Origin: Bacteroidetes bacterium RIFCSPLOWO2_12_FULL_35_15
GTDB lineage: Bacteria; Bacteroidota; Bacteroidia; 2-12-FULL-35-15
Length of the DNA stretch: 64,000 nt
Direction: 5' to 3'
Assembly (NCBI GenBank): GCA_001769385.1
Contig: MEPB01000048.1
Coordinates: forward strand, 21,548 to 85,547
How positions within the stretch are numbered: the first letter of the stretch is position 1; the number at the start of each line of letters is the position of its first letter. A program made the translations under genes and the position numbers. Below the pieces are notes generated by a model. The model saw only the letters and a program-made list of their open reading frames with translations, was not told the origin of the DNA and did no database searches. Positions 2,573-62,973 of this stretch are shown here, piece after piece.

Positions 2573-3340
2573 TTAGTGTGACAATTTTTTAGAAATTTTT
2601 TTGAAACGCATTTGTAACACCCCCCAAAAAGCTTCTTTGAAAATTCCTTTGCTCATTTTTGATGAGCCTTCAACTCTGTCGGTAAATGTTATGGGAACCT
2701 CCACTAGTTTGAATCCGAGTTTGTAGGCAGTATATTTCATTTCAATTTGAAAGGCATAGCCTACAAATTTAATTTCGTCAAAATCGATTTGTTCAAGTAC
2801 TTTACGTTTATAACATTTAAATCCTGCTGTAGTGTCATAAATGGGTACCCATAATACCATTCGAACATAAACGGATGCGTAATAGGACATCAAAACGCGA
2901 CCTTTGGGCCAATTTTCGATCTTGCCATCTTTTACATAGCGCGATCCGATCGCAACATCGGCACCATTTACACAAGCTTCACGTAAACGAATTAAATCAT
3001 TTGGGTTGTGTGAAAAATCGCAGTCCATTTCAAAAATATACTCATAGCTGCGTTGTAATGCCCATTTAAAACCATGAATATAGGCCGTTCCCAATCCTAA
3101 TTTGCCTTTACGTTCTTCAATAAATAATTTACCCGGAAACTCCTGCATCAAATTTTTTACAATCACGGCAGTGCCATCCGGAGAACCATCATCTATAATT
3201 AACAGGTGAAAGGGATGAGACAAAGAAAATACTTTGCGAACCATTCGCTCTATATTTTCTTTTTCGTTGTAGGTTGGTATAATGACTAAACTATCGCTCA
3301 CAAACTGTTTTTTGAAAAACGAAGATAACGCTCTATTCAA
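2573..3340 (-). CDS. GT2 glycosyltransferase, polyprenyl-phosphate mannosyltransferase-like
   Basis: IIPTYNEKENIERMV...LLIIDDGSPDGT is a GT2 DXD-type signature. Size is ~255 aa. Confidence 0.75.
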   Translation of the reverse strand: MNRALSSFFKKQFVSDSLVIIPTYNEKENIERMVRKVFSLSHPFHLLIIDDGSPDGTAVIVKNLMQEFPGKLFIEERKGKLGLGTAYIHGFKWALQRSYEYIFEMDCDFSHNPNDLIRLREACVNGADVAIGSRYVKDGKIENWPKGRVLMSYYASVYVRMVLWVPIYDTTAGFKCYKRKVLEQIDFDEIKFVGYAFQIEMKYTAYKLGFKLVEVPITFTDRVEGSSKMSKGIFKEAFWGVLQMRFKKISKKLSH

Positions 3341-3492
3341 TAATTACCAAAGTTTTTAGGTTTTTTGGCGAATTTTCTGCACTAATTAGGTATTGTTATA
3401 AATTAAGCGGTATTAACTATACAGTTTGATGAGTAATAAAATTTCATTTTATACCATTCTTTATTTTTAAGTTTGTATTAAACTCCATTCAA

Positions 3493-5598
3493 ATGAAAAA
3501 AATAGTACTCCTGTTTTTTGTGACTTTTTGCGCACAAAAATTCATTGCACAAGAAAATTTAAAATATTGTGGTGCAGATGAATTACGCATTGCTACGTTA
3601 AAAAAAAATCCAAAAATCGCACAAGCTGTTATCAAGCGAGATGAAGAACTAGAAGCGTTTACACAAAAATATGTTGCCGATTTTTATAATAAAAAGACAC
3701 TATCAGCAACGTATATTATTCCTGTGGTTTTTCATGTCATTCACAACTGGGGAATTGAAAATATTTCGGATGCACAAATTTTAGATGGATTGGATATATT
3801 AAATAAAACGTTTCGTAAACAGTTAGCCGACACAGCTTCCATTGTTTCGGCTTTTAAACCTCTGCATGCCGACTGTGATATTGAATTCAGAGTAGCTCAG
3901 CTGGATCCGAACGGAAATTGTACGAACGGGATCAATCGTATTGCTTCGTCACTGACTACTATTGGCGATCATTCTGTAAAATCAATCATACATTGGCCTC
4001 CGACTAAATATTTGAATGTCTATATTGTTTCAAATGCTGCCGGACTCGCGGGGCATTGTGTTTGGCCGGCTGATGCCGATTCGATCCCTTTGTGGGATGG
4101 AATTGTTATCGGGTATAATTATATAGGAAGCATTGGTACCTCTAACTATACCCAATCTGTAGCATTTGCGCATGAATGCGGACATTATTTGAATTTGCAA
4201 CACATTTGGGGTGGTAATAATGTTCCGAACTTTTATTATTATCCTTGTGCCAATCCCAATAAAGATTGTAATGTGGATGATCTTGTTGCTGATACTCCGC
4301 CTACCATTGGCTGGCAAAGTTGCAATTTATCAGGAGCATCCTGCGGAAATGCAGTTGATAATGTTCAGAATACAATGGATTATTCGTATTGCAATCGAAT
4401 GTTTACTTATGGACAAAAAGCAAGAATGCAAGCTTGTTTAAATTCACCCATTGCAGGAAGAAATAATTTATGGCAAACTGCAAATCTTATTGCAACGGGT
4501 GTTTTAAACCCACCGGGAGGATTGTGTAAAGCCGATTTTACAAGCAATATAAATGTTGTTTGTCAAGGTTCAGGTACTCCAATAGTTTTTACGAATACAT
4601 CCTATAACGGAACATTCACAGACGTTTTGTGGAATTTCCCCGGTGGAACTCCTTCCACATCTGTTTCTAGTAATCCAAATGTTTCGTACGCCACTCCCGG
4701 TACTTATGATGTGACGTTGAAAGTAAAAAATGGAACTGATTCTGTGGAGGTCACAAAAGTAAATTTCATTTCGGTTTTGCCAGCTACAAGTACTGTATAT
4801 CCATTTACCGAAGGATTTGAAACCACAAGCTCATTAAATGGTTTGGAATGGTTCTCGAATAGTTTTGATACGATCAACAACTGGCAACTTAATACAAGTG
4901 CATCTTATAGCGGAACAAGCTCCGTAATGCTTAACAATTATACGAGTCCTGCCGGAACGAAAGACGAATTATTTAGTAAAATGTTAAATTTAACAGGTGG
5001 TTCAGGACTTTACGTCAGTTTTAAATATGCGTATGCAAAAAAAGACAGCACAAGTAATGATCGTCTGCAATTATATATTACAAACAATTGTAATAACAAT
5101 TGGTTGCAACGAATAAATTTAACCGGCACAGCCTTGGAAACAGCGCCAATGCAATCAACACCTTTTGTTCCTGCTTCAACAAACGAATGGAAACAGGCAT
5201 CTGTAATTATTCCTCCGACATGGCTGACCGCAAATTTCAGATTTAAGTTTGTATATACCTCTTCCGCGGGAAACAATGTATATATCGATGACATTAATTT
5301 GAATGTGAATACCGGAATAAGCGATCTGGATGAAATGAGTTCCACCTTTCAATTGTTCCCAAATCCGGCAACTTCAATTGTTACCTTGGGGTTTAAATTA
5401 ACGGAGTCAAAAAAATTAAATATAGCGATACTAAATTTACTTGGACAAACAATTTATTCTTCCGGAAAAGAAAATTATTCTGATGGAGAACATACAATCA
5501 AACTATCTCTCAGGGATATTTCACCCGGGATGTATTTTATAAATGTTGCTGATGACAACAATGACTTTAAAAAACCTTTAGTTATAATTTCAAATTAG
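3493..5598 (+). CDS. Secreted zinc metalloprotease (metzincin, M43/pappalysin-like) with T9SS type-A C-terminal sorting domain
   Basis: HECGHYLNLQH is an HExxHxxxxxH zinc site. There is a signal peptide and a PKD-like segment (WNFPGGTPS). The C-terminus LFPNPATSIVTLGF...GMYFINV is Por-secretion-tail-like. Confidence 0.6.
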   Translation: MKKIVLLFFVTFCAQKFIAQENLKYCGADELRIATLKKNPKIAQAVIKRDEELEAFTQKYVADFYNKKTLSATYIIPVVFHVIHNWGIENISDAQILDGLDILNKTFRKQLADTASIVSAFKPLHADCDIEFRVAQLDPNGNCTNGINRIASSLTTIGDHSVKSIIHWPPTKYLNVYIVSNAAGLAGHCVWPADADSIPLWDGIVIGYNYIGSIGTSNYTQSVAFAHECGHYLNLQHIWGGNNVPNFYYYPCANPNKDCNVDDLVADTPPTIGWQSCNLSGASCGNAVDNVQNTMDYSYCNRMFTYGQKARMQACLNSPIAGRNNLWQTANLIATGVLNPPGGLCKADFTSNINVVCQGSGTPIVFTNTSYNGTFTDVLWNFPGGTPSTSVSSNPNVSYATPGTYDVTLKVKNGTDSVEVTKVNFISVLPATSTVYPFTEGFETTSSLNGLEWFSNSFDTINNWQLNTSASYSGTSSVMLNNYTSPAGTKDELFSKMLNLTGGSGLYVSFKYAYAKKDSTSNDRLQLYITNNCNNNWLQRINLTGTALETAPMQSTPFVPASTNEWKQASVIIPPTWLTANFRFKFVYTSSAGNNVYIDDINLNVNTGISDLDEMSSTFQLFPNPATSIVTLGFKLTESKKLNIAILNLLGQTIYSSGKENYSDGEHTIKLSLRDISPGMYFINVADDNNDFKKPLVIISN

Positions 5599-5636: not shown

Positions 5637-7529
5637 TTAATGAGCTCCTTTTTTTATTTCTTCCACAATTGAAGGGTCCAGCAAAGTAGAGGTATCGCCC
5701 AGATTTGATAAATCGCCTTCAGCTATTTTGCGCAGGATACGTCTCATGATTTTTCCGCTTCGTGTTTTTGGGAGGCCTTGTACTACTTGAATTTTATCAG
5801 GTTTTGCAATTGCTCCCATGTTTTTTGTTACGGTTTCAATTATTTCTTTTTTTAAGGCATCAGCATCTTTTCGTTCATGTTCACAAATGACAAACGCATA
5901 AATGCCCCAGCCTTTTATTTCATGAGGGAATCCAACCACTGCAGATTCAACAATATCAGGATGCTGATCAATTGCATTTTCTATTTCTGAGGTTCCTAAT
6001 AAATGTCCTGAAACTTTTATTACATCGTCAACCCGACCTGATATATGGTAATATCCCTCTTCATCGCGTTTGCATGCATCACCTGTGAAATAATATCCTT
6101 TAAATGTTTCAAAATAAGTTTCTTTGCAACGTTTATGATTTTGATAAGTTGTACGAATGATACCCGGCCATGGAAATTTAAAACACAATCTTCCTTCCAC
6201 ATTATTTCCCTGTAATTCTTTTCCCTGTTCATCAAGCAAAATAGGTTGTACTCCCGGTAAAGGAAGTGTTGCAAAACCAGGTTTTGTTTTAGTGATTCCG
6301 GCTAATGGAGAGATCATGATTCCACCGGTTTCTGTTTGCCACCATGTATCCACGATCGGACATTTCTTTTTTCCAATATTTTCGTTATACCAGTTCCATG
6401 CAAATTCATTTATTGGTTCGCCAACAGTTCCCAAAACCTTTAGCGAATCTAATTTATAAGGCTTTACAAAATCCAGACCAAGCGCTTCAAGGGATCTTAT
6501 TGCAGTTGGAGCGGTATAAAAAATAGCTACCTGATGTTTATCAATAACTTGCCAGAATCTTCCAGCATCAGGATAAGTGGGGATTCCTTCAAACATTAAT
6601 GTGGTGCCTCCTGCCAGAAGTGGTCCGTAAACTAAATAGGAGTGACCGGTGATCCAGCCCACATCAGCCGTACACCAAAATATATCGCCATCATTGTATT
6701 GAAAAACATTACGGAATGTATAATCAACAAAAGTCATATAGCCCGCTATTGTATGCACAACTCCTTTTGGTTTTCCGGTGGAGCCGGAAGTGTATAATAT
6801 GAAAAGCATATCTTCTGCATCCATTATTTCGGCAGGACAATCAGCGGAACTGTTTTTAATTTCATCCTGCCACCAAACATCACGTCCGCTTTCCATCTTT
6901 ACTTCGGTATTTATATGTTTATATACAATCACTTTTTTAACCGAAGGACAAGTTAATAAGGCTTCATCAATAACATTTTTCAATGGAATTTCTTTTGCTC
7001 CACGATACGCACCATCTGAAGTAATGACCACGTTACAATCGGCATCATGAATTCTATCAGAAAGTGATTTAAAAGAAAAACCACCAAATACCACTGAGTG
7101 AATAGCTCCGATTCTCGCACATGCCAAAACCGCTATTGTTAATTCAGGAATCATGGGCATATAAATACAAATGCGGTCGCCTTTTTTTGCACCATTTTTT
7201 TTCAGCACATTTGCAAATCGACATACTTCTGAATGAAGTTCTTTATACGTGAATTTTCGTACTTCATCTTCTGGATTATTAGGTTCCCAAATGAGTGCAG
7301 TTTGATTTCCTCTTTTTTCAAGATGGCGATCAAGGCAGTTTTCGGTGATATTGAGTTGTCCGCCAATGAACCATTTTATACTTGGCTCATCAAAATTCCA
7401 CTCCAACACGTTATCCCATTTTTTATGCCAGGTAAATTGTTCAGCTTGCTCTGCCCAAAAGGCTTCAGGAGTTTCAACACTACGTTTGTATTCCTGCTGA
7501 TATTGCTCAAAAGATGTAATACGGTTCAT
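5637..7529 (-). CDS. acs: Acetyl-CoA synthetase (acetate--CoA ligase)
   Basis: Full-length 630 aa product. Motifs YTSGSTGKPKGV, WWQTETGG and a C-terminal PKTRSGKIMRR are canonical Acs. Confidence 0.95.
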   Translation of the reverse strand: MNRITSFEQYQQEYKRSVETPEAFWAEQAEQFTWHKKWDNVLEWNFDEPSIKWFIGGQLNITENCLDRHLEKRGNQTALIWEPNNPEDEVRKFTYKELHSEVCRFANVLKKNGAKKGDRICIYMPMIPELTIAVLACARIGAIHSVVFGGFSFKSLSDRIHDADCNVVITSDGAYRGAKEIPLKNVIDEALLTCPSVKKVIVYKHINTEVKMESGRDVWWQDEIKNSSADCPAEIMDAEDMLFILYTSGSTGKPKGVVHTIAGYMTFVDYTFRNVFQYNDGDIFWCTADVGWITGHSYLVYGPLLAGGTTLMFEGIPTYPDAGRFWQVIDKHQVAIFYTAPTAIRSLEALGLDFVKPYKLDSLKVLGTVGEPINEFAWNWYNENIGKKKCPIVDTWWQTETGGIMISPLAGITKTKPGFATLPLPGVQPILLDEQGKELQGNNVEGRLCFKFPWPGIIRTTYQNHKRCKETYFETFKGYYFTGDACKRDEEGYYHISGRVDDVIKVSGHLLGTSEIENAIDQHPDIVESAVVGFPHEIKGWGIYAFVICEHERKDADALKKEIIETVTKNMGAIAKPDKIQVVQGLPKTRSGKIMRRILRKIAEGDLSNLGDTSTLLDPSIVEEIKKGAH

Positions 7530-7649
7530 AAAATTGAAAGATTAAATTATGTAGGTTGATAAAGATATGAATTCAAAAATAAGAAAAGAAAATGGCTTTA
7601 AAAATTAGCAGTGATCACAATCAAGAAAACAAATGATTTGAAAATGGGA

Positions 7650-8540
7650 GTTGTAGTATGGTACGCAGATTTAGCGGATTGTTTAAGATTTAAAATGATT
7701 TTTTGTAGGTGATTGTATAAGGATATTCTGTGTTGAAGCACTTTGTAGTATGGTACGCAGATTTAGGGGAGAGTTTAAGATTTAAAAATGATTTTTGTTG
7801 CTGATTATTATAGGATATTCCGTGTTGAAGTACTTTGTGGTATGGTACGCAGATTTAGCGGATTGTTTAAGATTTAAAAATGATTTTTGTTGCTGATTGT
7901 TCTAGGATATTCCGTGTTGAAGTACTTTGTAGTGTGGAACGCAGATTTAGGGGAGAGTTTAAGATTTAAAATGATTTTTTGTAGGTGATTGTATAAGGAT
8001 ATTCTGTGTTGAAGTACTTTGTAGTATGGTACGCAGATTTAGCGGAGAGTTTAAGATTTAAAAATGATTTTTGTTGCTGATTATTATAGGATATTCCGTG
8101 TTGTACTTTGTGGTATGGTACGCAGATTTCGCGGATAGTTTAGGATTTTAAAATGATTTTTGTTGATGATTGTTATATGATTTCTGTATTGAAGATTGTT
8201 ATAAGATATTCCGTGTTGAAATACTTTGTAGTATGGTACGCAGATTTCGCGGATAGTTTAAGATTTAAAAATGATTTCTGTATTGAAGATTGTTATAAGA
8301 TATTCCGTGTTGAAATACTTTGTAGTATGGTACGGAGATTTCGCGGATAGTTTAAGATTTAAAAATGATTTTTGTTGCTGATTGTTATATGATATTATGT
8401 GTTGAAGATTGTTATAGGATATACGTTATTGAAATTCGCATTTTGAATGATCTTAATTTATTATAAAGTCCTAACTAACATTTAAATCTTATCATTTTTT
8501 TATCATAAAAATCTTAATAAATCTGCGTCCGATCGAATCA
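7650..8540. repeat. Tandem array of ~8 direct repeats (unit ~92 bp, one 118-bp variant) with a terminal inverted partial copy
   Basis: Copies of the unit containing tatggtacgcagattt start near 7657, 7749, 7841, 7934, 8025, 8114, 8232 and 8326. An inverted partial copy aaaaatcttaataaatctgcgtcc lies at ~8505-8530. The 65-aa ORF at 8153-8350 is repeat-derived. Confidence 0.85.
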
Positions 8541-8554
8541 AGAATTTTTAAAAT

Positions 8555-9355
8555 CTATTTCGATAATTCACTTGCTCTGTCTCTGGCTTTAACAATGCCT
8601 TTCTGAAGATTTTCTCCAACATGATCTGATTCGAAAGAACTGAGTGCCGTTTCAGTAGTTCCTCCTTTTGAAGCAACTGCTTTTATCAATTCATCCAGTG
8701 ATTTATTGGTGGTATTCATCAAGTGAAATGAGCCCAACATGGTTTGTTTAACAAGCATGGAAGAAGTAGCTTCATCAAATCCCATTTGTTTTCCTGCTTC
8801 GATCATTTGTTTTACAATGTAGAAAAAATAGGCTGGTCCGCTGCCACTCAATGCTGTAACAGCATCTAACAGATCCTCATTCTCAAAAAACACGGTACGT
8901 CCGGTTGTTGCCAATAAATTTTCGGCCTTACGAATTTGTTCCAGCGAAAGGGATTTGCTTGCTGTAAAGGCAGTAACTCCCATGCCTAATTCTGCAGGAG
9001 AATTTGGCATAGCACGTATGATGTTTGGATTATTTAGTGCACTTTCAATACGTTGAATTTTTACTCCTGCCATTATGGAAATAATACATTTGGCGGGTTC
9101 TAAAATATGTTTCAGTTCTTTTGCTAATTCTTCAAAATCCTGTGGCTTTACTGCAATAATTACAATATCACTTGCTGCGATTTTTGCATCATTTATCACA
9201 GTTACCTCAGCAACATTCAGTTTAATCAGTTCCTGTTTGCGTGTTTCATTTTTTTCGGCAAGTATTAAATTTTCTTTTGAAACAATATTGTATTTTAAAA
9301 AAGCGCGGGCGTATATTAAACCCATGTTGCCACATCCAACAATTGTAATTTTCAT
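8555..9355 (-). CDS. proC: Pyrroline-5-carboxylate reductase
   Basis: N-terminal Rossmann motif IVGCGNMG, a ~266 aa product and a conserved ProC C-terminal dimerisation region. Confidence 0.9.
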   Translation of the reverse strand: MKITIVGCGNMGLIYARAFLKYNIVSKENLILAEKNETRKQELIKLNVAEVTVINDAKIAASDIVIIAVKPQDFEELAKELKHILEPAKCIISIMAGVKIQRIESALNNPNIIRAMPNSPAELGMGVTAFTASKSLSLEQIRKAENLLATTGRTVFFENEDLLDAVTALSGSGPAYFFYIVKQMIEAGKQMGFDEATSSMLVKQTMLGSFHLMNTTNKSLDELIKAVASKGGTTETALSSFESDHVGENLQKGIVKARDRASELSK

Positions 9356-9417
9356 TTTGTTTTATTTTTTAATGAGTTTTCTCTTTCTGCAAAATAGATT
9401 TATTTTTAATAGATTTT

Positions 9418-9897
9418 TTAATGCGCCCTCTTTTCTTTTATTTCTATTTGTCTTTTAATGCTTTCTTCTAAAGAAATAAATGTTTCTGTACGCTGCACCC
9501 CTTTTATTGTTTGGATATGTTCATTTAACACTTCTCTCAAATGCTGGGTATCCCGACAAATTATTTTTGCAAACATACTATAAACTCCGGTTGTATAATG
9601 CAATTCGACAACTTCCGGGATCTTTTTCAATCGACTGACGGCATCATGGTATTCAGATCCTTTATCTAAAAATATTCCTAAAAATGCACAAACATCATAA
9701 CCAACTTTTGCCGGATTAATTTCTAAGTGAGAGCCCCGTACAACTCCGGTGTCAATTAATTTTTTCATTCGAACATGGACTGTTCCTGCTGATACAACTA
9801 ATTCTTTTGCAATTTCTGTGTAAGGAATTGTGGAGTCCTTCATCAGCATAGAAAGAATTTGTCTGTCTAATTTATCAAGTTGAAAATTTTGCGCCAT
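9418..9897 (-). CDS. asnC: Lrp/AsnC family transcriptional regulator
   Basis: N-terminal HTH (LDRQILSMLMKDSTIPYTEIAKEL) plus a RAM domain. It is divergent from the asnA-like gene. Confidence 0.8.
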   Translation of the reverse strand: MAQNFQLDKLDRQILSMLMKDSTIPYTEIAKELVVSAGTVHVRMKKLIDTGVVRGSHLEINPAKVGYDVCAFLGIFLDKGSEYHDAVSRLKKIPEVVELHYTTGVYSMFAKIICRDTQHLREVLNEHIQTIKGVQRTETFISLEESIKRQIEIKEKRAH

Positions 9898-10042
9898 TTA
9901 AGGATGTGTATTTTACGACAAATGTAAAAAAAATATTGTTATATTATTATATTACTAATAATATGTTCAATTTGTTGAATATTTAATAATGTAAGGTTAT
10001 ACCATTTATCTTTGCCAAAGAAATTAAATAGAAAAAATAAAA

Positions 10043-10996
10043 ATGGAAACAACAATTTTAGAAAAAACGACCATGTTATCAGAAACATTAAAAAAAATCA
10101 AACGCCCTGAATTAAAGGATATCCTTAAAATTCAACAAGGCATTATCAGAGCAACGCATGAATTCATGCATAAAAAAGATGTAGTACAGCTTATGCCTAT
10201 AATGTTATCTGCAATTACCGACCCTTTGAATCATAGTGTTGTTGACGCTTCAATTAACTATGCAGACCAAAAATGGAGCTTAACAAAATCAATGATCTTT
10301 CATAAGCAATTAGCTTTAATAAACCCTTCGCTTGATGCCATTTATATTGTTTCTCCAAATGTTAGGTTAGAGTCGAAAGACCGTGCCGGTACCGGAAGAC
10401 ATTTATTTGAATTTACCCAGGTAGATTTTGAATTTAAACGAAAAGATAAAGAATTTGTAATGGCTTTTATGGAAGAACTGATTGCTTTTGTTTTTGATTC
10501 TTTGAACAAGCAGCTTCCGGAAATCATTATTAAATTAAGAGGAGAGTTGCTTCCTGTTTTTAAGAAATTAATAACATACAGAACGGAGGAATTGGAAGCA
10601 GAATTGGGTGAAGATTATGAATTTAAAAAATCAAAAGAAAGTCTGGAACCTTTTTGGTTAGTAAATCATAAACGCGAATTTTACGACAAAGAAGATATGT
10701 CGAAACCAGGAACATTTTTAAACTATGATATTATTTGGCCGGAAGGTTATGGCGAAGGTTTATCCGGTGCAGAACGTGAATATGAATATACACAAATTTT
10801 AAAACGGATGGAAGAAACCGGAACTAATAAAGAAGTGTTTAAAGATTATTTATCTGTTGCAAAACAAGAGGGGTTTATTCCAACAGCCGGTGCAGGGTTT
10901 GGCGTAGAACGGATGACACGTTATATTTGCCAATTAAAAGATGTTGACGAAGTCACTGTGTTTTCAAGAAAACCATATAGTGAATTGATGTTTTAA
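10043..10996 (+). CDS. asnA: Aspartate--ammonia ligase (asparagine synthetase A, AsnRS-catalytic-domain-like)
   Basis: Class II aaRS-like motifs (HLFEFTQVDFE, GAGFGVERMTRYI) are present without an anticodon-binding domain. The product is ~317 aa. It is divergently paired with an AsnC regulator, as at the E. coli asnC-asnA locus. Confidence 0.5.
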   Translation: METTILEKTTMLSETLKKIKRPELKDILKIQQGIIRATHEFMHKKDVVQLMPIMLSAITDPLNHSVVDASINYADQKWSLTKSMIFHKQLALINPSLDAIYIVSPNVRLESKDRAGTGRHLFEFTQVDFEFKRKDKEFVMAFMEELIAFVFDSLNKQLPEIIIKLRGELLPVFKKLITYRTEELEAELGEDYEFKKSKESLEPFWLVNHKREFYDKEDMSKPGTFLNYDIIWPEGYGEGLSGAEREYEYTQILKRMEETGTNKEVFKDYLSVAKQEGFIPTAGAGFGVERMTRYICQLKDVDEVTVFSRKPYSELMF

Positions 10997-11059
10997 TATT
11001 TGTATGACCTGAAGTAAAAAGGAGTAGCGGAAGTGCAGTATCCCGCTTCTAATGTTGGC

Positions 11060-11095
11060 TATGTTGAAGGAGCGGCTTTCTCCGCTCCTTTTTTT
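11060..11095 (+). terminator. Rho-independent terminator downstream of asnA-like gene
   Basis: Stem ggagcggctttctccgctcc followed by a T-run. Confidence 0.5.
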
Positions 11096-11188
11096 GATAA
11101 AACAAGGTTGTAATGTTTTGATTATAAGGAAGCACTTTGTGATGCTATAAAAAAAAGAGTTATTAACTGAAAAGAAAGTTGCAATTAA

Positions 11189-11548
11189 TTATTGCTTTTT
11201 ATAATGATCCCTTATCACCACCTTTTGCAATTCGCGTTTGATGATCAGATCGGTAACAATTACCGAAAATGATTCTGAGGAATTTTCATTTACTGCTTTT
11301 TTAATTTGAACATCGCTCACATCAATACGATAAAGAATTCCCATAAATTTTTGTTGGTTGTTCTCTATTAAATTTTTTATGTGGGGTTCTATCTGTTCAA
11401 ACAATTCCTGGTATGCATTATAGGCGTTACCGGAAAATTTTATTTCCATCCCGAACATATCAAAATCCTTGATGATTTGATTGGCTGTGTCTTTTATCAG
11501 GTCAAGACGATTGAAATATTTTGTTAGATCGGTAAAGTTCATTTGCAA
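11189..11548 (-). CDS. Hypothetical protein (119 aa)
   Basis: Intact ORF whose start codon lies 1 bp downstream of the upstream gene's stop (11548/11550). No recognised motif. Confidence 0.4.
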   Translation of the reverse strand: MQMNFTDLTKYFNRLDLIKDTANQIIKDFDMFGMEIKFSGNAYNAYQELFEQIEPHIKNLIENNQQKFMGILYRIDVSDVQIKKAVNENSSESFSVIVTDLIIKRELQKVVIRDHYKKQ

Positions 11549-11549
11549 T

Positions 11550-12839
11550 TTATTTCAAATCGTATTTCTTTTTATACTTTTCGTAAAGCTTTTTTTGATC
11601 ATTGTTCAGATCAATACTAATTCCTTTTATAAAAGCAAGTTCCACATTATTTGTCCGCATATCCAACACATCACCGGTTGAAATAAAAAGTGTTGCATCT
11701 TTTCCTGCTTCTATACTTCCGGTTGAGTTATCTATCCCTAAAATTTTTGCAGTACTCAATGTAATTGCTTTTAAGGCTTGTTCTTTTGTTAGTCCGTATG
11801 CCGCAGCTGTACCGGCCATAAATGGCAAGTTGCGTGTTTCCATAGCTTCCATGTCTCCTGAGTTATCTAAACAAAAAAGTACTCCTGCTTGTTGTAATAA
11901 GTACGGAAGTTTATAAGGCAGATTAACATCATCTTCCGGATGTTCAGGCAAACTATGAACTCGTGCAACAATTACCGAAATATAATTCTCACGCAACAGA
12001 TCAGTTACCATCCAACTATCTTTGCCGCCAACAACAGTAGTTTTTTTAATTCCATTTTGTTTCGAAAAATTTACTGCCTCAATTATTTCTTTTGCATTAT
12101 CGGTATGTATAAATAATGTTTGTGTTCCATTGAAAAGACCTTTCATTGCTTCGAATCGAAGGTTTTTTTCTTCGACTACTTCTGTTTCATTATACGCTTT
12201 TGCATCGAAAAAAAGTTTTTTCAGATCAGCGGTTTGTTTAGTGTAATTTTTATTTTTTTCATACGGTCCAGGGTAAATATTGTCTTCGTCCAGATACTTA
12301 CGGATCTGCATTTTTGGCCAATTCAGATGTATGCCATCGTCAATTTTATAAGCGGCATCTTCCCAGTTCCAGCCATCTAACTTAACAATACTTGAAGTGC
12401 CGGAGATTATTCCTCCTCGAGGTGTTATCTGAGCTAATAAAACACCATTGGTTCTTACTGTTGAAATAATCTTTGAATCTGTATTGTATGCGATCAATGA
12501 ACGAACATTTGGTAAGGTGGAGCCAACTTCTTTAAAATCACTAGTTGCACGTATCGATTCCATTTCAATTAAACCTAAAGTAGAATTGGGAGAAATAATT
12601 CCCGGATAAATGTGCTTGCCTGTTGCATCTATTTTTTCATCATAGTTGCCGAGTTCGACTTTCGTTTTTGAAGCATCAATTACTTCGGTTATTTTACCGT
12701 TTTTTATTCCAATGTAGGAATTTTGAATAACACTGTCGGTTCCTAAATGAGCTATTCCATTCATGAGCAAAATGCTTTTTGTTTGAGCACTAGCGGTGAT
12801 GGTGATAAATGTGGTTAGGAGTAAAAAAAATTTTCTCAT
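11550..12839 (-). CDS. Amidohydrolase family protein (metal-dependent hydrolase), secreted
   Basis: Signal peptide and an amidohydrolase fold signature (IDATGKHIYPGIISPNSTLGL). 429 aa. Confidence 0.7.
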   Translation of the reverse strand: MRKFFLLLTTFITITASAQTKSILLMNGIAHLGTDSVIQNSYIGIKNGKITEVIDASKTKVELGNYDEKIDATGKHIYPGIISPNSTLGLIEMESIRATSDFKEVGSTLPNVRSLIAYNTDSKIISTVRTNGVLLAQITPRGGIISGTSSIVKLDGWNWEDAAYKIDDGIHLNWPKMQIRKYLDEDNIYPGPYEKNKNYTKQTADLKKLFFDAKAYNETEVVEEKNLRFEAMKGLFNGTQTLFIHTDNAKEIIEAVNFSKQNGIKKTTVVGGKDSWMVTDLLRENYISVIVARVHSLPEHPEDDVNLPYKLPYLLQQAGVLFCLDNSGDMEAMETRNLPFMAGTAAAYGLTKEQALKAITLSTAKILGIDNSTGSIEAGKDATLFISTGDVLDMRTNNVELAFIKGISIDLNNDQKKLYEKYKKKYDLK

Positions 12840-12859
12840 GGTTTGGTTTATATATACTG

Positions 12860-13310
12860 GATATTATGGTACGCAGATCTTTTAGGATTTTTAAGATTAA
12901 AAATGATTTTGTTTTATTCTATAATTATGATTTTAGGTTTTGACTGTTTTATATACTTGGTATTATGGTACGCAGATCTATATGAATTTTTATGATTTAA
13001 AATGATTTGGTTTTATGTTATAATTATGATTTTAGGTGTTGGCTGTTTTATTTAGTTGGTATTATGGTACGCAGATCTATATGAATTTTTATGATTTAAA
13101 ATGATTTGGTTTTATGTTATAATTATGATTTTAGGTGTTGACTGTTTTATATACTTGGTGTTATGGTATGCAGATCTTTTAAGATCTTTAAGATTAAAAA
13201 TGATTTTGTTTTATGCTATAATTATGATTATGATTTTATGTATTGACTGTTTTATATACTTGGTATTATGGTACGCAGATTTATTAAGATTTTTAAGATC
13301 AAAAAAGATT
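12860..13310. repeat. Tandem array of 5 direct repeats (~99 bp unit) of the tatggtacgcagat family
   Basis: Unit starts are near 12863, 12961, 13060, 13159 and 13264. The 82-aa ORF at 13101-13349 is a repeat artefact. Confidence 0.85.
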
Positions 13311-13311
13311 T

Positions 13312-13731
13312 TTATGTTGTTGAGGTTAAGATTATTTTATGTTTCTTGAATTCGTTGGAAAGAACCTTTCTTTTGTATTGTGGCTCTGTTCCAAAATTAA
13401 GAAGTAAGCCAACTTCCATCTCTGTTGCCCTTAAATAGTTGACTAACTGGATTTCATGTTCAATGATAATTTCTTCAACAGCCTTTAATTCAATCACTAT
13501 AAGATTTTCTACAACAATATCTGCAAAATAGGAACCCACAACTTCCCCTTCATAATAAACAGTTATTGGTTTTTGTTTTTCGCATTTTAGTTTCAACTTT
13601 TTTAACTCGATAGTTAATGCATTTTCATAAACTTTTTCATAGAATCCATAACCAATCGTGTTATAAACATTAAAAAATGCTTTTAATATTAGTCCTGTAA
13701 TTCCAGAATGTTTAAAGTTGTCATCCATCAT
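13312..13731 (-). CDS. GxxExxY family protein (PD-(D/E)XK nuclease-like)
   Basis: 139 aa. Contains G-F-Y-E-K-V-Y-E-N-A (GxxExxY) and the acidic/lysine residues IVVENLIVIELKA. It is flanked by the repeat array and its inverted copy. Confidence 0.7.
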   Translation of the reverse strand: MMDDNFKHSGITGLILKAFFNVYNTIGYGFYEKVYENALTIELKKLKLKCEKQKPITVYYEGEVVGSYFADIVVENLIVIELKAVEEIIIEHEIQLVNYLRATEMEVGLLLNFGTEPQYKRKVLSNEFKKHKIILTSTT

Positions 13732-13759
13732 AAAAAAAGCATAATCATTTTAAATCATA

Positions 13760-13790
13760 AAAATTCATATAGATCTGCGTACCAATAATT
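13760..13790. repeat. Inverted partial copy of the array repeat core
   Basis: atagatctgcgtacc is the reverse complement of ggtacgcagatctat. Confidence 0.6.
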
Positions 13791-16700
13791 TAATTCTCTC
13801 TCAAATATTCTTTTTCAATACTTTCGCATTCATACAATTTCTGTTTTTTTACGACAGGTTTTTGTGTTGCTGCTCCGGTCTTTTTTTCATCCAGCATTTT
13901 TTGAATGATACGTGCCCTCTCTTTCTGAATCTCTTGTCGCAATTTCAGATCTTCTTCCGTATCATAATAAATATGCCCATCAATAATTGTCTTTTCAACT
14001 TTTGCATAGATCGACAATGGATTATCGGACCATAAAACCACATCCGCATCTTTACCCACTTTAATACTTCCTACTTTTTTATCGATGTGTAACAATTTTG
14101 CCGGATTGAGTGTAACCATTTTCAAAGCATCTTCTTCGCTCATTCCACCATATTTCACTGATTTTGCAGCTTCCTGATTTAATCTGCGACCCATTTCAGC
14201 ATCATCTGAATTGATTGCTGTTGTAATTCCCATTTGTGTTAAAAGTGCTGCATTGTATGGAATGGCATCTTGCACTTCCATTTTATAAGCCCACCAATCA
14301 CTGAAAGAAGAAGCGCCTGCACCATGCGATTTCATTTTATCTGCTACTTTATATCCTTCTAAAATATGTGTGAACGTATTTACTTTAAATCCCATTGAAT
14401 CGGCAACATGCATCAGCATATTTAATTCAGATTGAACATAGGAATGACAAGTAATAAAACGTTTTTGGTTTAAAATTTCTGCCAATGCTTCTAGTTCCAG
14501 ATTCCTGCGAAATGGAGTTGTTGTAGCTTTTACTTTTTCTGATAAAGCTTCAAAGGATTTTTGTTTTGCATCGTATTCTTTCGCTCTGGTAAAATAATCG
14601 TAATACACTTGCTCCACACCCATACGCGTTTGCGGAAAACGCAGGGTGCTGAAATCACCGGCATTACTTTGTTTCACATTTTCACCCAATGCAAATTTGA
14701 TGAAGCCATCTGCTTTGGCAAATTTCATTTCTTCGGGTGATTTTCCCCAGCGTAATTTTATAAGAGCTGATTGTCCGCCAATCGGATTTGATGATCCGTG
14801 AAGTAATTGAGAAGTGGTAACTCCACCGGAAAGTTGTCTGTAGATATTAATATCCTCCGGATTAATTACATCACCTATTCGAACTTCTGAACTGGATGCT
14901 TGTGTGCTTTCATTAACACCGTTTGCAATTGCAATGTGTGAATGTTCATCAATAATTCCTGCAGTAAGATGTTTTCCTGTTCCATCAATTACCTTTGCAA
15001 AAGCAAGTTTGGGTGCACCAATATCATCCGCAATACGAACAATGCGTCCTTCAGTAATATATACATCCTGATTTTTTAAAACACCTTCTGATTCATTTGT
15101 CCAAACAGTAACATGTTTAATTAAGATGGCATCATAACGCGTTTTTAGATCATAAATAATTTTATTGAATCCATCACGGTCGTTAAGTGGTTTACCATAA
15201 GCACAAAACGGATAAATGACTTGTCCGTATTTCAGAACATCTTTTTTTACAGAATCTTTTTTCACAGATTCTTTTTTTATTTCTGTTATTAATTTAAATG
15301 TTGCACTCCAGTCGAGCCATTCGCCATCCGGAGTTTGCCCTTTCCCATTCATTGTTAATGATTCCGTATTAATAGTTCCGCTCAAACGAATGGTGCCTTT
15401 CATATCTTTAGGGTTAAAATTCAGGGAAACCGAATTGCCGAATACTATAACATTTACAGGTGTTTTAGCAGTGTCAATTAAAATATAGCCTTTTAGTTTG
15501 TCTGGTTCTCCTTCAATTTTTAATTGGTACAATCGTTTATTTCCATAAGCAAAATCATAATTGCCTCTTACATCAATAGTGCTGTAATCATTTATTTTAT
15601 AAGGATTTCCCTGAATCCAGTTTTCATAAATGATCGTTTTCTCATCAAATAAATTACCGGAAGTGATGATGAAATTTGCGATCATTCCGCTTTTTAATTT
15701 GCCTAGTTTATCTGAGATGTTTAATAATTCAGCAGGTGTGGAGGTGAGTGATCTCAATGCTTGTTTTTCTGATAAACCATAACTGATCGCTTTGCGTAAA
15801 TTTTTCCAGAAATCTTTTTTATCTTTCAGGTCAGCGGTTGTTAGTGCAAACGGAATAAAATATTTTTCCATCGCAACAGGATTTGCAGGAGCCATTTCCC
15901 AATGTTTTAATTCTGTTAATGAAACATTGATTGCATCGTAAGGGTCTTCAACATCGTATGCAATGGGGAAATTAAGAGGGATAATGAATTTACAATTCGT
16001 TGCTTTTATATCATCTAAACTTTGATATTCGGTTCCGCTTCCTTTGATGATGTAATTAATTTTAAATTCTTTTCCGATCTTATCGGCACGTAACACATTG
16101 AATTTGTCGGTTGTTTCGAAAATCTGCGGAAGCATTTGTAAATTATTAAATGCTTCAAGTGAAATATTAACCTCTCCCCCTGTCTCTCTCCTGGAGGCGA
16201 GAGGAGTTTGGTTTTTATACCAATCGGCATCCAGATAGGTCTGGCGAATTAATGCTATAGTACCCATTAAGGAGGAGGGATAATCTTGTGTGGAACATCC
16301 TTTGTCAAATGAAAATAGTGCTGCTGCTTTGTCGCTTAGGATCAATAAATTTTCTTTCCCATCGGCCAAAGAAACGATTGTGCCTGAACCTCTTACTATT
16401 CCATCTTTCTGAAAAGTTAAAACAGCACCAAATCCTAATTTCCGAAACTCATCTGCCGACAGGTTATTACCGGCAAAAATTTTAAATGCTTCTGTTTCTG
16501 CTTTCACAGCTTGATTCCATCCATAGGCACCTTTTGTATTGCTACCCATTTGTGGCAGCATCCCTTTGTAAATAGTTTTATTTTCGGGCATACCATAATT
16601 GGTATATGCATCGATCAGTGCCGGATAAATTGACTTTCCTTTCAAGTCAAATATTACAGAACCTTTTGGTATTGAAACTTTTGTTCCAACTTGTATAATG

Positions 16701-16885
16701 ATCCCGTCCTTTATTAATAGAGTTGCATTGTCGATAGTTTCATCGGCATCCACAATAATCTTAGCATTTGTAAATGCATAAACAGTGTGATTTGGGTTTG
16801 TTGTTCCGTTAACAGGAAAGGTTTCCTGTGCTAAGGAGAAACATCCAATTAATAAGGTGAATACGAGTGTAACTAAATTTTTCAT
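13790..16885 (-). CDS. Large secreted amidohydrolase family protein (two amidohydrolase-like regions)
   Basis: 1031 aa with a signal peptide. N- and C-terminal amidohydrolase signatures (HSHIAIANGVNE; HVADSMGFKVNTFTHILEG). It is the neighbour of the smaller amidohydrolase. Confidence 0.7.
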   Translation of the reverse strand: MKNLVTLVFTLLIGCFSLAQETFPVNGTTNPNHTVYAFTNAKIIVDADETIDNATLLIKDGIIIQVGTKVSIPKGSVIFDLKGKSIYPALIDAYTNYGMPENKTIYKGMLPQMGSNTKGAYGWNQAVKAETEAFKIFAGNNLSADEFRKLGFGAVLTFQKDGIVRGSGTIVSLADGKENLLILSDKAAALFSFDKGCSTQDYPSSLMGTIALIRQTYLDADWYKNQTPLASRRETGGEVNISLEAFNNLQMLPQIFETTDKFNVLRADKIGKEFKINYIIKGSGTEYQSLDDIKATNCKFIIPLNFPIAYDVEDPYDAINVSLTELKHWEMAPANPVAMEKYFIPFALTTADLKDKKDFWKNLRKAISYGLSEKQALRSLTSTPAELLNISDKLGKLKSGMIANFIITSGNLFDEKTIIYENWIQGNPYKINDYSTIDVRGNYDFAYGNKRLYQLKIEGEPDKLKGYILIDTAKTPVNVIVFGNSVSLNFNPKDMKGTIRLSGTINTESLTMNGKGQTPDGEWLDWSATFKLITEIKKESVKKDSVKKDVLKYGQVIYPFCAYGKPLNDRDGFNKIIYDLKTRYDAILIKHVTVWTNESEGVLKNQDVYITEGRIVRIADDIGAPKLAFAKVIDGTGKHLTAGIIDEHSHIAIANGVNESTQASSSEVRIGDVINPEDINIYRQLSGGVTTSQLLHGSSNPIGGQSALIKLRWGKSPEEMKFAKADGFIKFALGENVKQSNAGDFSTLRFPQTRMGVEQVYYDYFTRAKEYDAKQKSFEALSEKVKATTTPFRRNLELEALAEILNQKRFITCHSYVQSELNMLMHVADSMGFKVNTFTHILEGYKVADKMKSHGAGASSFSDWWAYKMEVQDAIPYNAALLTQMGITTAINSDDAEMGRRLNQEAAKSVKYGGMSEEDALKMVTLNPAKLLHIDKKVGSIKVGKDADVVLWSDNPLSIYAKVEKTIIDGHIYYDTEEDLKLRQEIQKERARIIQKMLDEKKTGAATQKPVVKKQKLYECESIEKEYLREN

Positions 16886-17662: not shown

Positions 17663-17717
17663 TTAGTGGTTAGGAATTGTTTAAATTTCTTAAAAATAAT
17701 TTATTAGTATCAAAAGT

Positions 17718-17805
17718 GTCATTCCCACCCTAGCGGAGGAATCTTTATATTTTTAAGCACAATGGTAATCAAGTAAAAAGATTTCTCGACTTCGCTCGAA
17801 ATGAC
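17718..17805. repeat. REP/MITE-like hairpin element (gtcattYcgaNcg...gagaaatc family)
   Basis: Inverted arms gtcattcccaccctagcggaggaatcttt and aaagatttctcgacttcgctcgaaatgac. Confidence 0.7.
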
Positions 17806-17911
17806 AATGTCCTTAAAAGAGAATGTTTTACTAAAATTTATAACAGCGTCTTAATAGAGGTAAGTTTGGGAAAGCACAGAACAATCAATAACTATAACTG
17901 GCAACTGAAAG

Positions 17912-19114
17912 ATGTACGATACCTCAAAGAAAAAAGAAACAGCCATTTTGGTTGGATTGATCAATAAAAGTCAGGATGAAGAAACGGTTGTTGAATATCT
18001 TGATGAGTTAGCTTTTTTGACTGAAACAGCCGGTGCGGATGTTGTGAAGCGTTTTACACAACGATTGGAACATCCTGATTCCCGTACATTTATTGGTTCC
18101 GGAAAATTAAATGAGGTCCGTAATTTTGTTCTTGAAAACAAAATTGATATTGTAATATTCGATGATGAACTTTCTCCTGCTCAACAACGGAATCTGGAGA
18201 AAGAAATAAATTTAGAGAAAGAAATTAAAATAAAAGTAGTTGATCGTACCCGGTTGATCCTCGATATTTTCGCTTCCCGTGCTCGTACTGCACATGCAAA
18301 AACACAAGTTGAATTAGCACAATCTATTTATTTATTACCGCGCCTCACCAAAATGTGGGACCACTTGGATCGTATCAAAGGTGGTATCGGGATGAAAGGA
18401 GCAGGGGAATCCGAAATTGAAACCGACAGACGTATTGTTCGTGATCGGATATCTTTACTGAAAGATCGCTTGAAGACCATCGACAGACAGATGGAAACAC
18501 AACGCAAAAGTCGTGGTGAAATGATACGCATTGCGTTGGTTGGTTATACCAATGTTGGTAAATCTACCATCATGAATATGTTGAGCAAAAGTGATGTGTT
18601 TGCCGAAAATAAATTGTTCGCCACATTAGATACAACAGTAAGAAAAGTAGTAATTGAAAATTTACCTTTCTTGCTTTCAGATACCGTTGGGTTTATCCGT
18701 AAATTGCCTACAACACTTGTAGAATCATTCAAATCAACCTTAGATGAAGTACGTGAGGCGGATATTTTAATTCATGTGGTGGATATTTCCCATCCGGGTT
18801 TCGAAGATCAAATTAATGTGGTAAATCAAACCTTAAGTGATATTGGTGCCGGGGATAAACCTATAATTCTGGTGTTTAATAAAATTGATGCCTTTACTTT
18901 TGAAGAAAAAGAAGCAGATGATCTGACCCCTATTACAAAAAGTAATTTAAGTTTAAATGATCTGAAAAAAACATGGATGAATAAATTGCAATCCGAGTGT
19001 TTGTTTATTTCTGCTACTAACAAACTGAATATTGATGAATTCAAAAAAGTGGTGTACGAAAAAGCAAAAGAGCTTCATCTGAAACGTTATCCATATAATA
19101 ACTTTTTGTATTGA
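17912..19114 (+). CDS. hflX: GTPase HflX
   Basis: HflX N-domain, G1 motif GYTNVGKST and DTVGF. 400 aa. Confidence 0.9.
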   Translation: MYDTSKKKETAILVGLINKSQDEETVVEYLDELAFLTETAGADVVKRFTQRLEHPDSRTFIGSGKLNEVRNFVLENKIDIVIFDDELSPAQQRNLEKEINLEKEIKIKVVDRTRLILDIFASRARTAHAKTQVELAQSIYLLPRLTKMWDHLDRIKGGIGMKGAGESEIETDRRIVRDRISLLKDRLKTIDRQMETQRKSRGEMIRIALVGYTNVGKSTIMNMLSKSDVFAENKLFATLDTTVRKVVIENLPFLLSDTVGFIRKLPTTLVESFKSTLDEVREADILIHVVDISHPGFEDQINVVNQTLSDIGAGDKPIILVFNKIDAFTFEEKEADDLTPITKSNLSLNDLKKTWMNKLQSECLFISATNKLNIDEFKKVVYEKAKELHLKRYPYNNFLY

Positions 19115-19143
19115 TTGGAGTTTGTGATGATTTGTTTCGGGAT

Positions 19144-19270
19144 GTCATTCCGACCGAAGTGGAGGAATCTTTATATTTATTCGCATAATTGTAAAAAGTA
19201 AAAAGATTTCTCCACTTCGGTCGAAATGACATTTAGGAACTGTCATTTCGACTGTAAGGAGAAATCTCAT
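19144..19270. repeat. REP/MITE-like hairpin element (1.5 units)
   Basis: Arms gtcattccgaccgaagtggaggaatcttt and aagatttctccacttcggtcgaaatgac, plus gtcatttcgactgtaaggagaaatctcat. Confidence 0.75.
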
Positions 19271-39728: not shown

Positions 39729-39874
39729 CACTAACTTTTTCAATTAGAAATTCCAATTAGAAATTCCAATTTGAAGGAGCTATTTCATCAGCTGTCTTTG
39801 CTAAAAACCTGAGTTCGATAACTTGATATAAATATCATTAAATATTAATAGACGGAGGATATTATTTCGGAACT

Positions 39875-40105
39875 GTCATTTCGAACGAAATGAAATGAAG
39901 AGAGAAATATCATTTTGCGAAGAAGAGATTTCTCCCTCTGGTCGAAATGACATTTAGGAAAGTCATTTCGAACGAAATGAAGAGAGAAATCTCATTTTGC
40001 GAAGAAGAGATTTCTCCCTCTGGTCGAAATGACTTTAGGAAAGTCATTTCGAACGAAATGAAATGAAGAGAGAAATCTCATTTTTGCAAAGAAGAGATTT
40101 CTCCC
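39875..40105. repeat. Tandem cluster (~3 units, ~75 bp each) of the REP/MITE-like hairpin family
   Basis: The unit gtcatttcgaacgaaatgaa(atgaa)gagagaaatctcattttgcgaagaagagatttctccctctggtcgaaatgac is repeated. The 72-aa ORF 40063-40281 is repeat-derived. Confidence 0.8.
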
Positions 40106-62721: not shown

Positions 62722-62761
62722 GGGGCTGTTTAATATTTCAATTGCATAAATTGTATGATCT

Positions 62762-62790
62762 GTCATTTCGAACGTAGAGAGAAATCTCAT
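62762..62790. repeat. REP/MITE-like half-element
   Basis: gtcatttcgaacgtagagagaaatctcat. Confidence 0.6.
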
Positions 62791-62973
62791 TTTATGATAA
62801 TTACATTGAGAATCTTTCGGACTTTATCCTGAGCAAAGTTGAAGGGTTCAACATGACAGGATGGTTACAATAAACTTGATATAGATCTTGCTTCTTATTC
62901 AAATGGATTTTATTTGTATAAAATATTTGTAATACCATTTGCCATTATAAAATGGTCTAATTTGAATTGCCGG

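Follow-up and report, generated by a model that had tools for sequence, protein, structure and literature searches.

A predicted nuclease gene of the GxxExxY family between inverted arms of short repeated words: an old, vertically inherited cassette in Bacteroidia with counterparts in other phyla

Introduction

The role of the open reading frames (ORFs) carried by rRNA intervening sequences (IVSs) has been a question since the 1990s. In the 23S IVS of Coxiella burnetii, a 28-bp stem made of terminal inverted repeats encloses an S23p ORF (PF05635), and two to three tandem GACAGAT heptamers, whose number varies by strain, precede the start of this ORF (PMC4990558). RNase III cuts at the first GACAGAT repeat, and the IVS was gained horizontally, then kept vertically (PMC4990558). 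In another system, the RAYT gene is inherited vertically, and the repeats on its flanks are also scattered between genes, alone, in clusters or as doublets that form hairpins (PMC3116915). Here, we describe a GxxExxY gene that shares features with both systems. It is located, between two amidohydrolase genes and between arms made of short repeated words, in a 64,000-nt stretch of contig MEPB01000048.1 (hereafter the window), which comes from an uncultured Bacteroidia population and has a guanine-cytosine (GC) content of 35.7%.

With 14,028 clusters at 50% identity that match the protein encoded in the window at E<=1e-3, the GxxExxY family is large. Several GxxExxY genes per genome are common. 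To our knowledge, no function has been established for this family, also called PDDEXK_3. Nothing was found in the searchable literature on the biology of GxxExxY, PDDEXK_3 or PF13366 proteins or on a link between their genes and repeats, nor did we find there any description of the cassette type reported below.

Results and discussion

A GxxExxY cassette at an amidohydrolase junction

All relevant genes are on the minus strand of the window, in the order 1031-aa amidohydrolase, 5' arm, GxxExxY ORF, tandem array, 429-aa amidohydrolase. The GxxExxY gene (13312-13731, minus strand) encodes 139 aa and matches the PF13366 PDDEXK_3 profile (E=1e-38, 132.7 bits for a cut-off of 22) and the TIGR04256 GxxExxY profile (E=1e-37, 129 bits for a cut-off of 35), in agreement with the original prediction, which a model had made from the bare sequence. 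The 5' or 'sense' arm (51 nt, 13736-13786, minus strand; inverted repeat, nhmmer E=6e-12) reads TTGGTACGCAGATCTATATGAATTTTTATGATTTAAAATGATT on the minus strand (13786-13736). It fills the spacer between the stop codon of the upstream amidohydrolase (13790), from which it is separated by 3-5 nt, and the ATG of the GxxExxY gene (13731). The inverted copy of the repeat core that had been placed after the ORF does exist there, but the ORF is on the minus strand, so this copy is upstream of the ATG and the array is 3' of the gene.

The best homologues of the GxxExxY protein (63-96% identity) are encoded at the same amidohydrolase junction in several metagenome-assembled genomes (MAGs) and metagenomes, and synteny of the cassette extends to five other lineages or more. 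Occupied orthologous junctions were found in the comparison loci L011 (GCA_030654175.1), L012-L015, L016 (GCA_038258655.1), L039/L040 (GCA_005772895.1) and L043, each relative carrying one sense arm upstream and one antisense arm downstream of GxxExxY. Identity to the window is 80-82% for GxxExxY and 77-79% for the flanking amidohydrolases. The ratio of nonsynonymous to synonymous divergence (dN/dS) of GxxExxY is 0.04-0.15, with dS near saturation, and the gene is thus under strong purifying selection. Other relatives have an empty junction, with a spacer of 18 nt in L035, the closest one by its amidohydrolase (87% identity), and of 52 nt in L036/L037. In L038 (a 4.5-Mb contig), the cassette has decayed: between sense and antisense words, all within 220 nt, only the last ~25 codons of the gene (LLNFGTEPQYKRKVLSNEFKKH...) are left. 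No relative has the array and lacks any trace of the gene.

Given the synteny, the divergence in step with the amidohydrolases and the low dN/dS, the cassette is old and vertically inherited and not a recent insertion. Arm, GxxExxY gene and arm form a discrete cassette that has at times been lost cleanly (L035, L036) or has decayed (L038), and we are highly confident in this architecture and history. The discrete insertion proposed initially is therefore upheld as a module with repeat copies in opposite orientation that is absent from some relatives; its recency is not. In L036, the 'empty' 52-nt spacer (4949-5000) contains ATGCAACGCTATCAATAATC (compare ATGGAACGCAGAT...). This could be a vestige of a sense arm, in which case the cassette was lost there and the site was never naive.

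Recent amplification of the 3' arm

The five direct repeats of about 99 bp announced by the prediction were recovered at 12846-13330 (plus strand; Tandem Repeats Finder (TRF), repeat search and unit alignment). Their approximate bounds are 12848-12946, 12947-13045, 13046-13144, 13145-13249 and, for a partial fifth unit overlapping the final codons of the GxxExxY ORF, 13250-13330. TRF gives a period of 99 nt, 4.6 copies and 88% matches for 12846-13312, and the spacings obtained by repeat search are 99, 99 and 99. Each unit contains one 3' arm, antisense relative to the gene, and ~45 nt of the spacer that precedes the ATG of the downstream amidohydrolase; ~25 nt separate the outermost arm copy from this ATG. 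The arms are runs of ~10-11-nt words of the '...CGCAGAT' kind, the outermost one being (A/T)GG(T/A)ACGCAGAT. The 14-mer core TATGGTACGCAGAT is found on the plus strand at 12865, 12964, 13063, 13162 (one mismatch) and 13267. With at most two mismatches, it matches the whole window 15 times for 0.31 expected, a count reached by none of 100 shuffles. A profile search with the core across the 64 kb also returns 15 copies, all of them within exactly two clusters, the one at 12846-13786, which includes the 5' arm, and the one at 7643-8535 discussed below, and no further copy elsewhere in the window.

The closest relatives indicate the age of the array. In L043, whose GxxExxY is 96% identical at the protein level and 89% at the nucleotide level, a single arm is found downstream. 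Furthermore, L001 (ENA contig ERZ4903185 k141_2980285), an independent assembly 99.8% identical to the window, has an array exactly one 99-nt unit shorter. The array is therefore new: in this strain, the 3' arm and the adjacent spacer were amplified in tandem, to 4-5 units, very recently. The gene was described as embedded in a direct-repeat array, a view that the relatives, with one arm on each side, do not sustain. The one-unit difference of L001 is either a true copy-number polymorphism or an assembly collapse of the near-identical units 2 and 3.

Could the array itself be an artefact of short-read metagenome assembly? Units 2 and 3 are 99% identical, one unit is missing from the independent assembly, and the array is where two short public contigs (L002, L003) stop. 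However, both independent assemblies have at least four units with the same unit-specific differences, and comparable arrays are present at other loci and in other datasets, which makes an artefact extremely improbable. Moreover, the conclusions that do not depend on the array are unaffected by its copy number.

Over 49 nt (13736-13784), the 5' arm and units 2 and 3 are complementary at 94% of positions (repeat search), and 42/42 nt are identical by BLAST, whereas units 1, 4 and 5 lack this sequence. This indicates that sequence was transferred from the 5' arm into units 2 and 3, i.e. between oppositely oriented arms.

Two other readings of the array were discarded. Whole units of 92-99 nt run head to tail without unique spacers, unlike CRISPR arrays. 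A coding role was considered for an 82-aa ORF (13101-13349, plus strand) that stays in frame through the units, 99 nt being 33 codons, and that the public assembly calls a gene (L001, 10383-10631). The sister array has a period of 92 nt and the relatives are single-armed; this ORF is almost certainly spurious.

Conservation and predicted pairing of the arms

Between orthologues, the arms are 76-97% identical, against 28-78% at the fourfold degenerate sites of the adjacent gene, although aligning low-complexity AT-rich arms inflates their identity. For the 5' arm and the orthologous arm of L043, the values are 91% and 72%. The outermost word varies between genomes yet matches across both arms (TGGTAC/GTACCA, TAGTAC/GTACTA, TAGGAAC/GTTCCTA), and double compensatory changes affect 9 of 29 stem pairs among seven orthologues. 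Arm duplexes of ~40-50 bp are predicted. Within this clade, their free energies (dG) are -33 to -46 kcal/mol, for z-scores of -6.5 to -10.5, and they reach -70 kcal/mol or below for GC-rich arms (z -6 to -11 overall). Such a pattern would be expected alike from selection for pairing, from a recognition sequence common to both arms and from arm-to-arm conversion.

The GxxExxY protein

The residues G29-F-Y-E32-K-V-Y35, D71 and E81-L-K83 are invariant across 86 homologues, and E32, D71, E81 and K83 are predicted to be catalytic. An AlphaFold2 prediction from the alignment of these 86 sequences confirms the restriction-endonuclease-like PD-(D/E)XK fold proposed for the ORF product; a run on the single sequence had been uninformative, with a predicted local distance difference test (pLDDT) score of 29. 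A search of PDB sequences with the protein gave no match, and neither did the PADLOC and PHROGs families. Relatives were absent from phage genomes and IMG/VR contigs, and only four plasmid records carry them.

The original prediction had suggested a selfish or homing-type element, or a nuclease that acts on or propagates the repeats; a homing event is not obvious here. In such a scenario, a free-standing homing endonuclease or a recent mobile insertion, the nuclease would cut the empty amidohydrolase spacer and a donor cassette would be copied in. As for homing endonuclease genes, the gene is small, encodes a predicted nuclease and has one site that is occupied, empty or decayed, which resembles a homing cycle. 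The fold would suit this scenario too, small PD-(D/E)XK homing endonucleases such as I-Ssp6803I being known. However, the identity of GxxExxY tracks that of the amidohydrolases, under strong purifying selection and with saturated dS, so that inheritance is old and vertical, and even the closest occupied relative differs at ~11% of nucleotides. Moreover, the searches above link the family to neither phages, viral contigs nor defence families, the cassette has no link to introns, and inverted word arms, gene-less doublets and arrays are foreign to homing endonuclease genes. We therefore regard homing or recent insertion as quite improbable.

Several features of the family were noted in passing. 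In L021, two tandem GxxExxY genes (2992-3396 and 3544-3945) adjoin a transposase-like ORF at its end. Among database representatives, several proteins of 250-270 aa have two GxxExxY domains and are thus fusions of tandem genes. Many GxxExxY proteins in databases carry N-terminal extensions that resemble read-through of upstream words (e.g. L027).

Word arms around GxxExxY genes in other lineages

We surveyed 18 GxxExxY loci from JGI metagenomes (36-67% identity, 34-66% GC), four from plasmids or chromids and two further loci from Bacteroidia. Many are framed by highly significant inverted repeats of 10-11-nt words, for instance GGAACGCGGAT, GGAACACGGAT, GCACAGATGG and GATGAACGCGG, with inverted-repeat z-scores of 15 in L018, 9.5 in L020, 13.7 in L024, 13.8 in L025, 6.6 in L033 and 16 in L049. 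A z-score above 6 was obtained for 10 of 17 GxxExxY ORFs, six of the 17 loci being orthologues of one junction and hence not independent, versus 3 of 165 other ORFs (Fisher p=6e-10), every other ORF of 90 aa or more in these loci serving as a control. Of the three controls above this value, one is a genuine RAYT with repetitive extragenic palindromic (REP) hairpins in L005, one is the window's hflX and one is an ORF adjoining a GxxExxY gene. Thus, the suspected link of these genes with such repeats is real and holds generally across phyla, and the corrected finding is more general than what was proposed.

The words also have a preferred orientation. Upstream of GxxExxY, CRCRGA[TA] occurs 22 times in sense and twice in antisense, and downstream 18 times in antisense and 8 times in sense, for a background of ~0.1 per 150 nt. 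In most loci, the words extend as far as the ATG, and at times they enter the start codon. GxxExxY shares its strand with 26 of 32 neighbouring ORFs. Metagenome examples with word arms range from 34 to 72% GC. In Fusobacteriota, ATCCGTGTACC units precede GxxExxY and also the next gene. In Treponema (Spirochaetota), CACACGGAT and ATCCGTGTT words surround GxxExxY, and in Gemmatirosa (Gemmatimonadota) a hairpin of 3+3 CGCGGAT words lies downstream of it. This recurrence of the layout across several phyla suggests that there is a class of cassettes, selfish or domesticated, that has been poorly described so far. Each of the other GxxExxY genes has words of its own version.

Other junctions, gene-less copies and arm arrays

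Cassettes also occupy other operon junctions in Bacteroidia, namely between hemCD and hemB in L049 and between hmgA and hppD in L046. Both are co-oriented with their neighbours, and their arms fill spacers of 40-50 nt. At the hem junction, L036 has only an empty spacer of 10 nt, whereas L039 has an arm pair without a gene; the outer word of this pair, ATAGGAACGCGGAT, is also the variant found beside the GxxExxY gene of L039 itself. Such a match within one genome between the arm variant of the cassette and that of gene-less copies was also found in the window, in JAURXZ01 (L006/L011) and in Treponema (L042), where a gene-less pair with near-identical arms lies 1.1 kb away.

The window itself contains a copy of this kind. 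The second cluster (7643-8435, plus strand; TRF, alignment, nhmmer E=1e-13 to 1e-15) has eight arm cores in units of 92-94 nt, with sub-repeats of 26-27 nt. It is located upstream of acs (5637-7529, minus strand), between this gene and proC (8555-9355, minus strand). Its inverted, 'sense' partner arm (8485-8535, minus strand; inverted repeat of 51 nt, 82%; nhmmer E=4e-9) is ~20 nt downstream of the proC stop codon and ~50 nt from the array. Neither an enclosed ORF nor a GxxExxY remnant was detected in 7643-8535 (ORF list; tblastn with GxxExxY). This cluster is thus a gene-less member of the family in which one arm has been amplified, and it is either a cassette that decayed or a copy that is non-autonomous. 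It had been noticed as a gene-less array about 5 kb away; the kinship and the absence of a gene hold, and the partner arm, which had been missed, has to be added.

Elsewhere, gene-less inverted doublets were found in L010, L039, L042 and L044. The strict pattern of the window's arm variant occurs at seven intergenic loci (L004-L010, all Bacteroidota MAGs) among 185,579 species representatives, with no GxxExxY gene within the 8-kb stretch examined for each. Arms were independently amplified in tandem in L020 (3-4 units of ~62 nt downstream of GxxExxY), L019, L023, L025 and L004. Orthologous spacers of L004 (~6780-6930), L006 (~6756) and L007 (~7300-7440) contain 3, 1 and 1-2 arm copies, respectively, in three related MAGs. 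Therefore, arrays gain and lose units over short times, and they do so even where no GxxExxY gene is close by. In L009 (4700-4810 and 6700-6960), a different word repeat (CCGCAGAGGCGCAGAGGCGCGAAG) precedes the GGTACGCRGAT arms, which suggests that these clusters are composite and built from more than one word family.

These gene-less copies bear on whether gene and repeat are associated at all. A generic REP-like repeat, or one resembling miniature inverted-repeat transposable elements (MITEs), could have been spread by another enzyme and surround GxxExxY by coincidence; the repeat does occur without GxxExxY at 7643-8535 and at the seven MAG loci, an unrelated MITE-like family flanks hflX in the window, and a true RAYT is present in L005. 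However, orthologous loci have kept gene and arms together although their synonymous divergence is saturated, words of this type and orientation recur at unrelated loci and in other phyla, and the RAYT of L005 has different REP sequences. Hence, coincidence is very improbable. The RAYT gene of L005 (3305-3766; PF01797, IS200-like Y1 transposase, E=1e-27) is flanked by REP hairpins AACAACGGATTTTAATCCGTTG, and a solo GGTACGCAGAT arm is present in its 8-kb stretch; in the flank test, this gene was the positive control.

Comparison with known elements

Like 23S IVSs, the cassette consists of a small ORF within terminal inverted repeats predicted to form a long stem (49 nt, 94%). The CRCRGAT-type words just before the ORF start in most loci, and the varying number of arm units, recall the tandem '...CAGAT' words of IVSs. 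The cassette likewise sits, co-oriented, in a non-coding segment of an operon that is most likely transcribed, with a sporadic spread and vertical upkeep once acquired. However, 23S IVSs (e.g. those of Coxiella burnetii and Leptospira) are located in rRNA helix 9, 25 or 45, whereas the cassette is in an mRNA operon spacer, between protein-coding genes, and no rRNA is present in the window. The ORF of 23S IVSs encodes a four-helix bundle (S23p/PF05635) and that of the cassette a PF13366 PD-(D/E)XK protein. The word period is ~10-11 nt in the cassette versus 7 nt in the Coxiella IVS, and the exact word also differs. Furthermore, the Coxiella S23p ORF is decaying whereas the cassette ORF is under strong purifying selection, and gene-less doublets and long tandem arm arrays, present in the cassette family, are not described for IVSs.

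One locus brings the two closer. In L010 (MAG JAZKBF01; 4041-4388, minus strand), a PF05635 gene follows a stop codon directly, within an operon spacer, and tandem AATTTGAAAAT words form inverted arms on its two sides. The words differ from those of the GxxExxY genes, but the cassette architecture is therefore common to two unrelated small-protein families, GxxExxY and PF05635.

As in the RAYT system and the hairpins formed by REP doublets (REPINs), a conserved, vertically inherited gene is flanked by inverted repeat copies, the repeat recurs elsewhere between genes, singly, in tandem clusters or as inverted doublets able to form hairpins, and its genome-specific variant matches the copies that adjoin the gene. 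However, RAYT is a Y1/HUH transposase (PF01797) whereas the enzyme of the cassette is a 139-aa PD-(D/E)XK protein, and the arms are runs of periodic words, not one short GC-rich palindrome. The repeats of REPIN/RAYT systems are mainly inverted doublets in tens to hundreds of copies per genome. GxxExxY genes themselves are often multi-copy. With MITEs and insertion sequences, the cassette shares terminal inverted repeats, gene-less derivatives, presence/absence polymorphism and a location in intergenic spacers. It differs from them by long-term purifying selection and by a divergence congruent with that of the host; neither a target-site duplication nor near-identical copies at different loci were detected, and profile searches detected no transposase family in it. 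Since it is not in rRNA and has neither a PF05635 ORF nor a Y1 transposase, the cassette belongs to neither the IVSs nor the REPIN/RAYT systems, but it may work like either or both.

Proposed mechanism

On balance, we consider as probable a composite explanation in which an old, vertically inherited GxxExxY cassette, placed in the short spacer of two co-transcribed amidohydrolase genes, has arms that pair and on which the nuclease acts. The cassette would have no promoter of its own and would be transcribed with the host operon. Co-transcription is most likely because no promoter or terminator is recognisable, which is weak evidence in Bacteroidota, and because the words reach the start codon; scans of the cassette for sigma-70 promoters and intrinsic terminators, ill-suited to Bacteroidota, gave nothing above shuffles. 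The arms would then pair into an RNA stem of ~45 bp, as in the ORF-bearing 23S IVS cut by RNase III. By this analogy, processing of the RNA stem is conceivable, though we would not call it probable.

In addition, the nuclease may act on the arm DNA, either as a hairpin or cruciform or by recognition of the words. Such an action would explain spacer insertion, arm-to-arm conversion, clean deletion, gene-less doublets and tandem arrays, in a relation that resembles that of RAYT transposases with REPINs. The arms are the candidate substrate because a conserved nuclease needs one and they are the only feature found consistently with the gene across phyla. We propose this cognate interaction tentatively, as a possibility that the sequences suggest.

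Several observations, besides the non-independence of six test loci, weigh against this explanation. First, comparison of filled and empty junctions revealed no target-site duplication, and no near-identical cassettes were found at different loci, so that there is no direct sign of recent transposition. Second, it could be that every gene-less arm pair was left by a deletion and that none was mobilised in trans as a copy. Third, the words are in direct and not inverted orientation in L041, L029, L030 and L045, they are present on one side only in L021 and L022, and in L044 a complete hairpin is located downstream of the gene. Therefore, a stem enclosing the ORF cannot be obligatory. Lastly, word arms are not exclusive to the nuclease family, since they accompany the PF05635 gene of L010 and the S23p ORF of Coxiella, which weakens the idea that GxxExxY proteins read the words.

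In the main rival explanation, the arms are purely cis-acting RNA elements that pair as 5'/3' untranslated regions or signal processing, so that a small gene can be expressed from a polycistronic host transcript and excised from it, just as in rRNA IVSs. GxxExxY would then have an unrelated job in the cell, and arrays and gene-less copies would be by-products of slippage in periodic AT-rich DNA and of gene deletion. The words that reach or enter the start codon, the lack of promoter or terminator signals above chance, the co-orientation with flanking operon genes and the stable predicted arm duplex with its compensatory changes are all compatible with such a role. So are the presence of an unrelated PF05635 gene in the same architecture, L038, which shows that a gene-less state can be reached by internal deletion, and the precedent of RNase III cleavage at the first GACAGAT repeat of the IVS (PMC4990558). 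However, a role restricted to RNA leaves unexplained how cassettes of one type came to be at different junctions (amidohydrolase, hem, hmgA) when relatives have clean empty sites there. Furthermore, loci with direct or one-sided words cannot form an enclosing stem, and intact catalytic residues under purifying selection call for a nuclease substrate, for which the arms are the only consistent companion. Hence, we consider purely cis-acting arms unlikely and retain the composite explanation.

A broader version is somewhat doubtful as a whole. GxxExxY genes and, in parallel, PF05635 genes would be small cross-phylum cassettes that lie between arms of tandem GAT words and insert into transcribed spacers such as operon junctions and rRNA helices, the PD-(D/E)XK protein recognising, moving, converting, deleting and amplifying the arms. 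If true, they would be a previously unrecognised, nuclease-driven counterpart of RAYT/REPIN and a source of REP-like repeats and arrays in Bacteroidota and other phyla.

Significance of the cassettes

GxxExxY cassettes can thus be viewed as units that are occupied, empty, decayed or gene-less at the same operon junctions, and whose arms seed dispersed repeats and fast-changing arrays. They provide a recurrent cassette type for a large family without known function, with arm DNA or RNA as a concrete candidate substrate, and they offer an evolutionary model that is both IVS-like and REPIN-like. From a practical point of view, they explain assembly breaks at these genes, ORF calls extended through the words and spurious ORFs in arrays.

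Neighbouring genes and other repeats in the window

The upstream host gene (13790-16885, minus strand; ORF list, Pfam Amidohydro_1/3) encodes a two-domain amidohydrolase of 1031 aa and is syntenic in L011-L016 and L035-L039. The downstream one (11550-12839, minus strand; ORF list, Pfam; orthologues P0121-P0240) encodes the amidohydrolase of 429 aa. The two are distant paralogues (25% identity, E=2e-16), as had been anticipated.

Rfam gave no match on the whole window at the gathering threshold, nor on 7400-14000 at E<=1. Readings of the words as sigma-54 sites, DnaA boxes or Bacteroidota -7/-33 promoters were set aside, their spacing and letters being a misfit by eye (an inference only).

A second, unrelated hairpin or MITE-like family, GTCATTTCGAMC...GGTCGAAATGAC, has 14 core matches in the window for 1.3 expected. 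It is present at 17717-17806, 19143-19253, 39874-40105, 57472 and 62761-63023. It forms an inverted pair around hflX (17912-19114; inverted-repeat z=22) and an 82-nt tandem at 39892-40105. Finally, 44050-49430 contains long in-frame tandem repeats with periods of 270 and 243/486 nt (71-80% matches), which are presumably the repeated domains of a large surface protein or of a protein of the type IX secretion system (T9SS) type.

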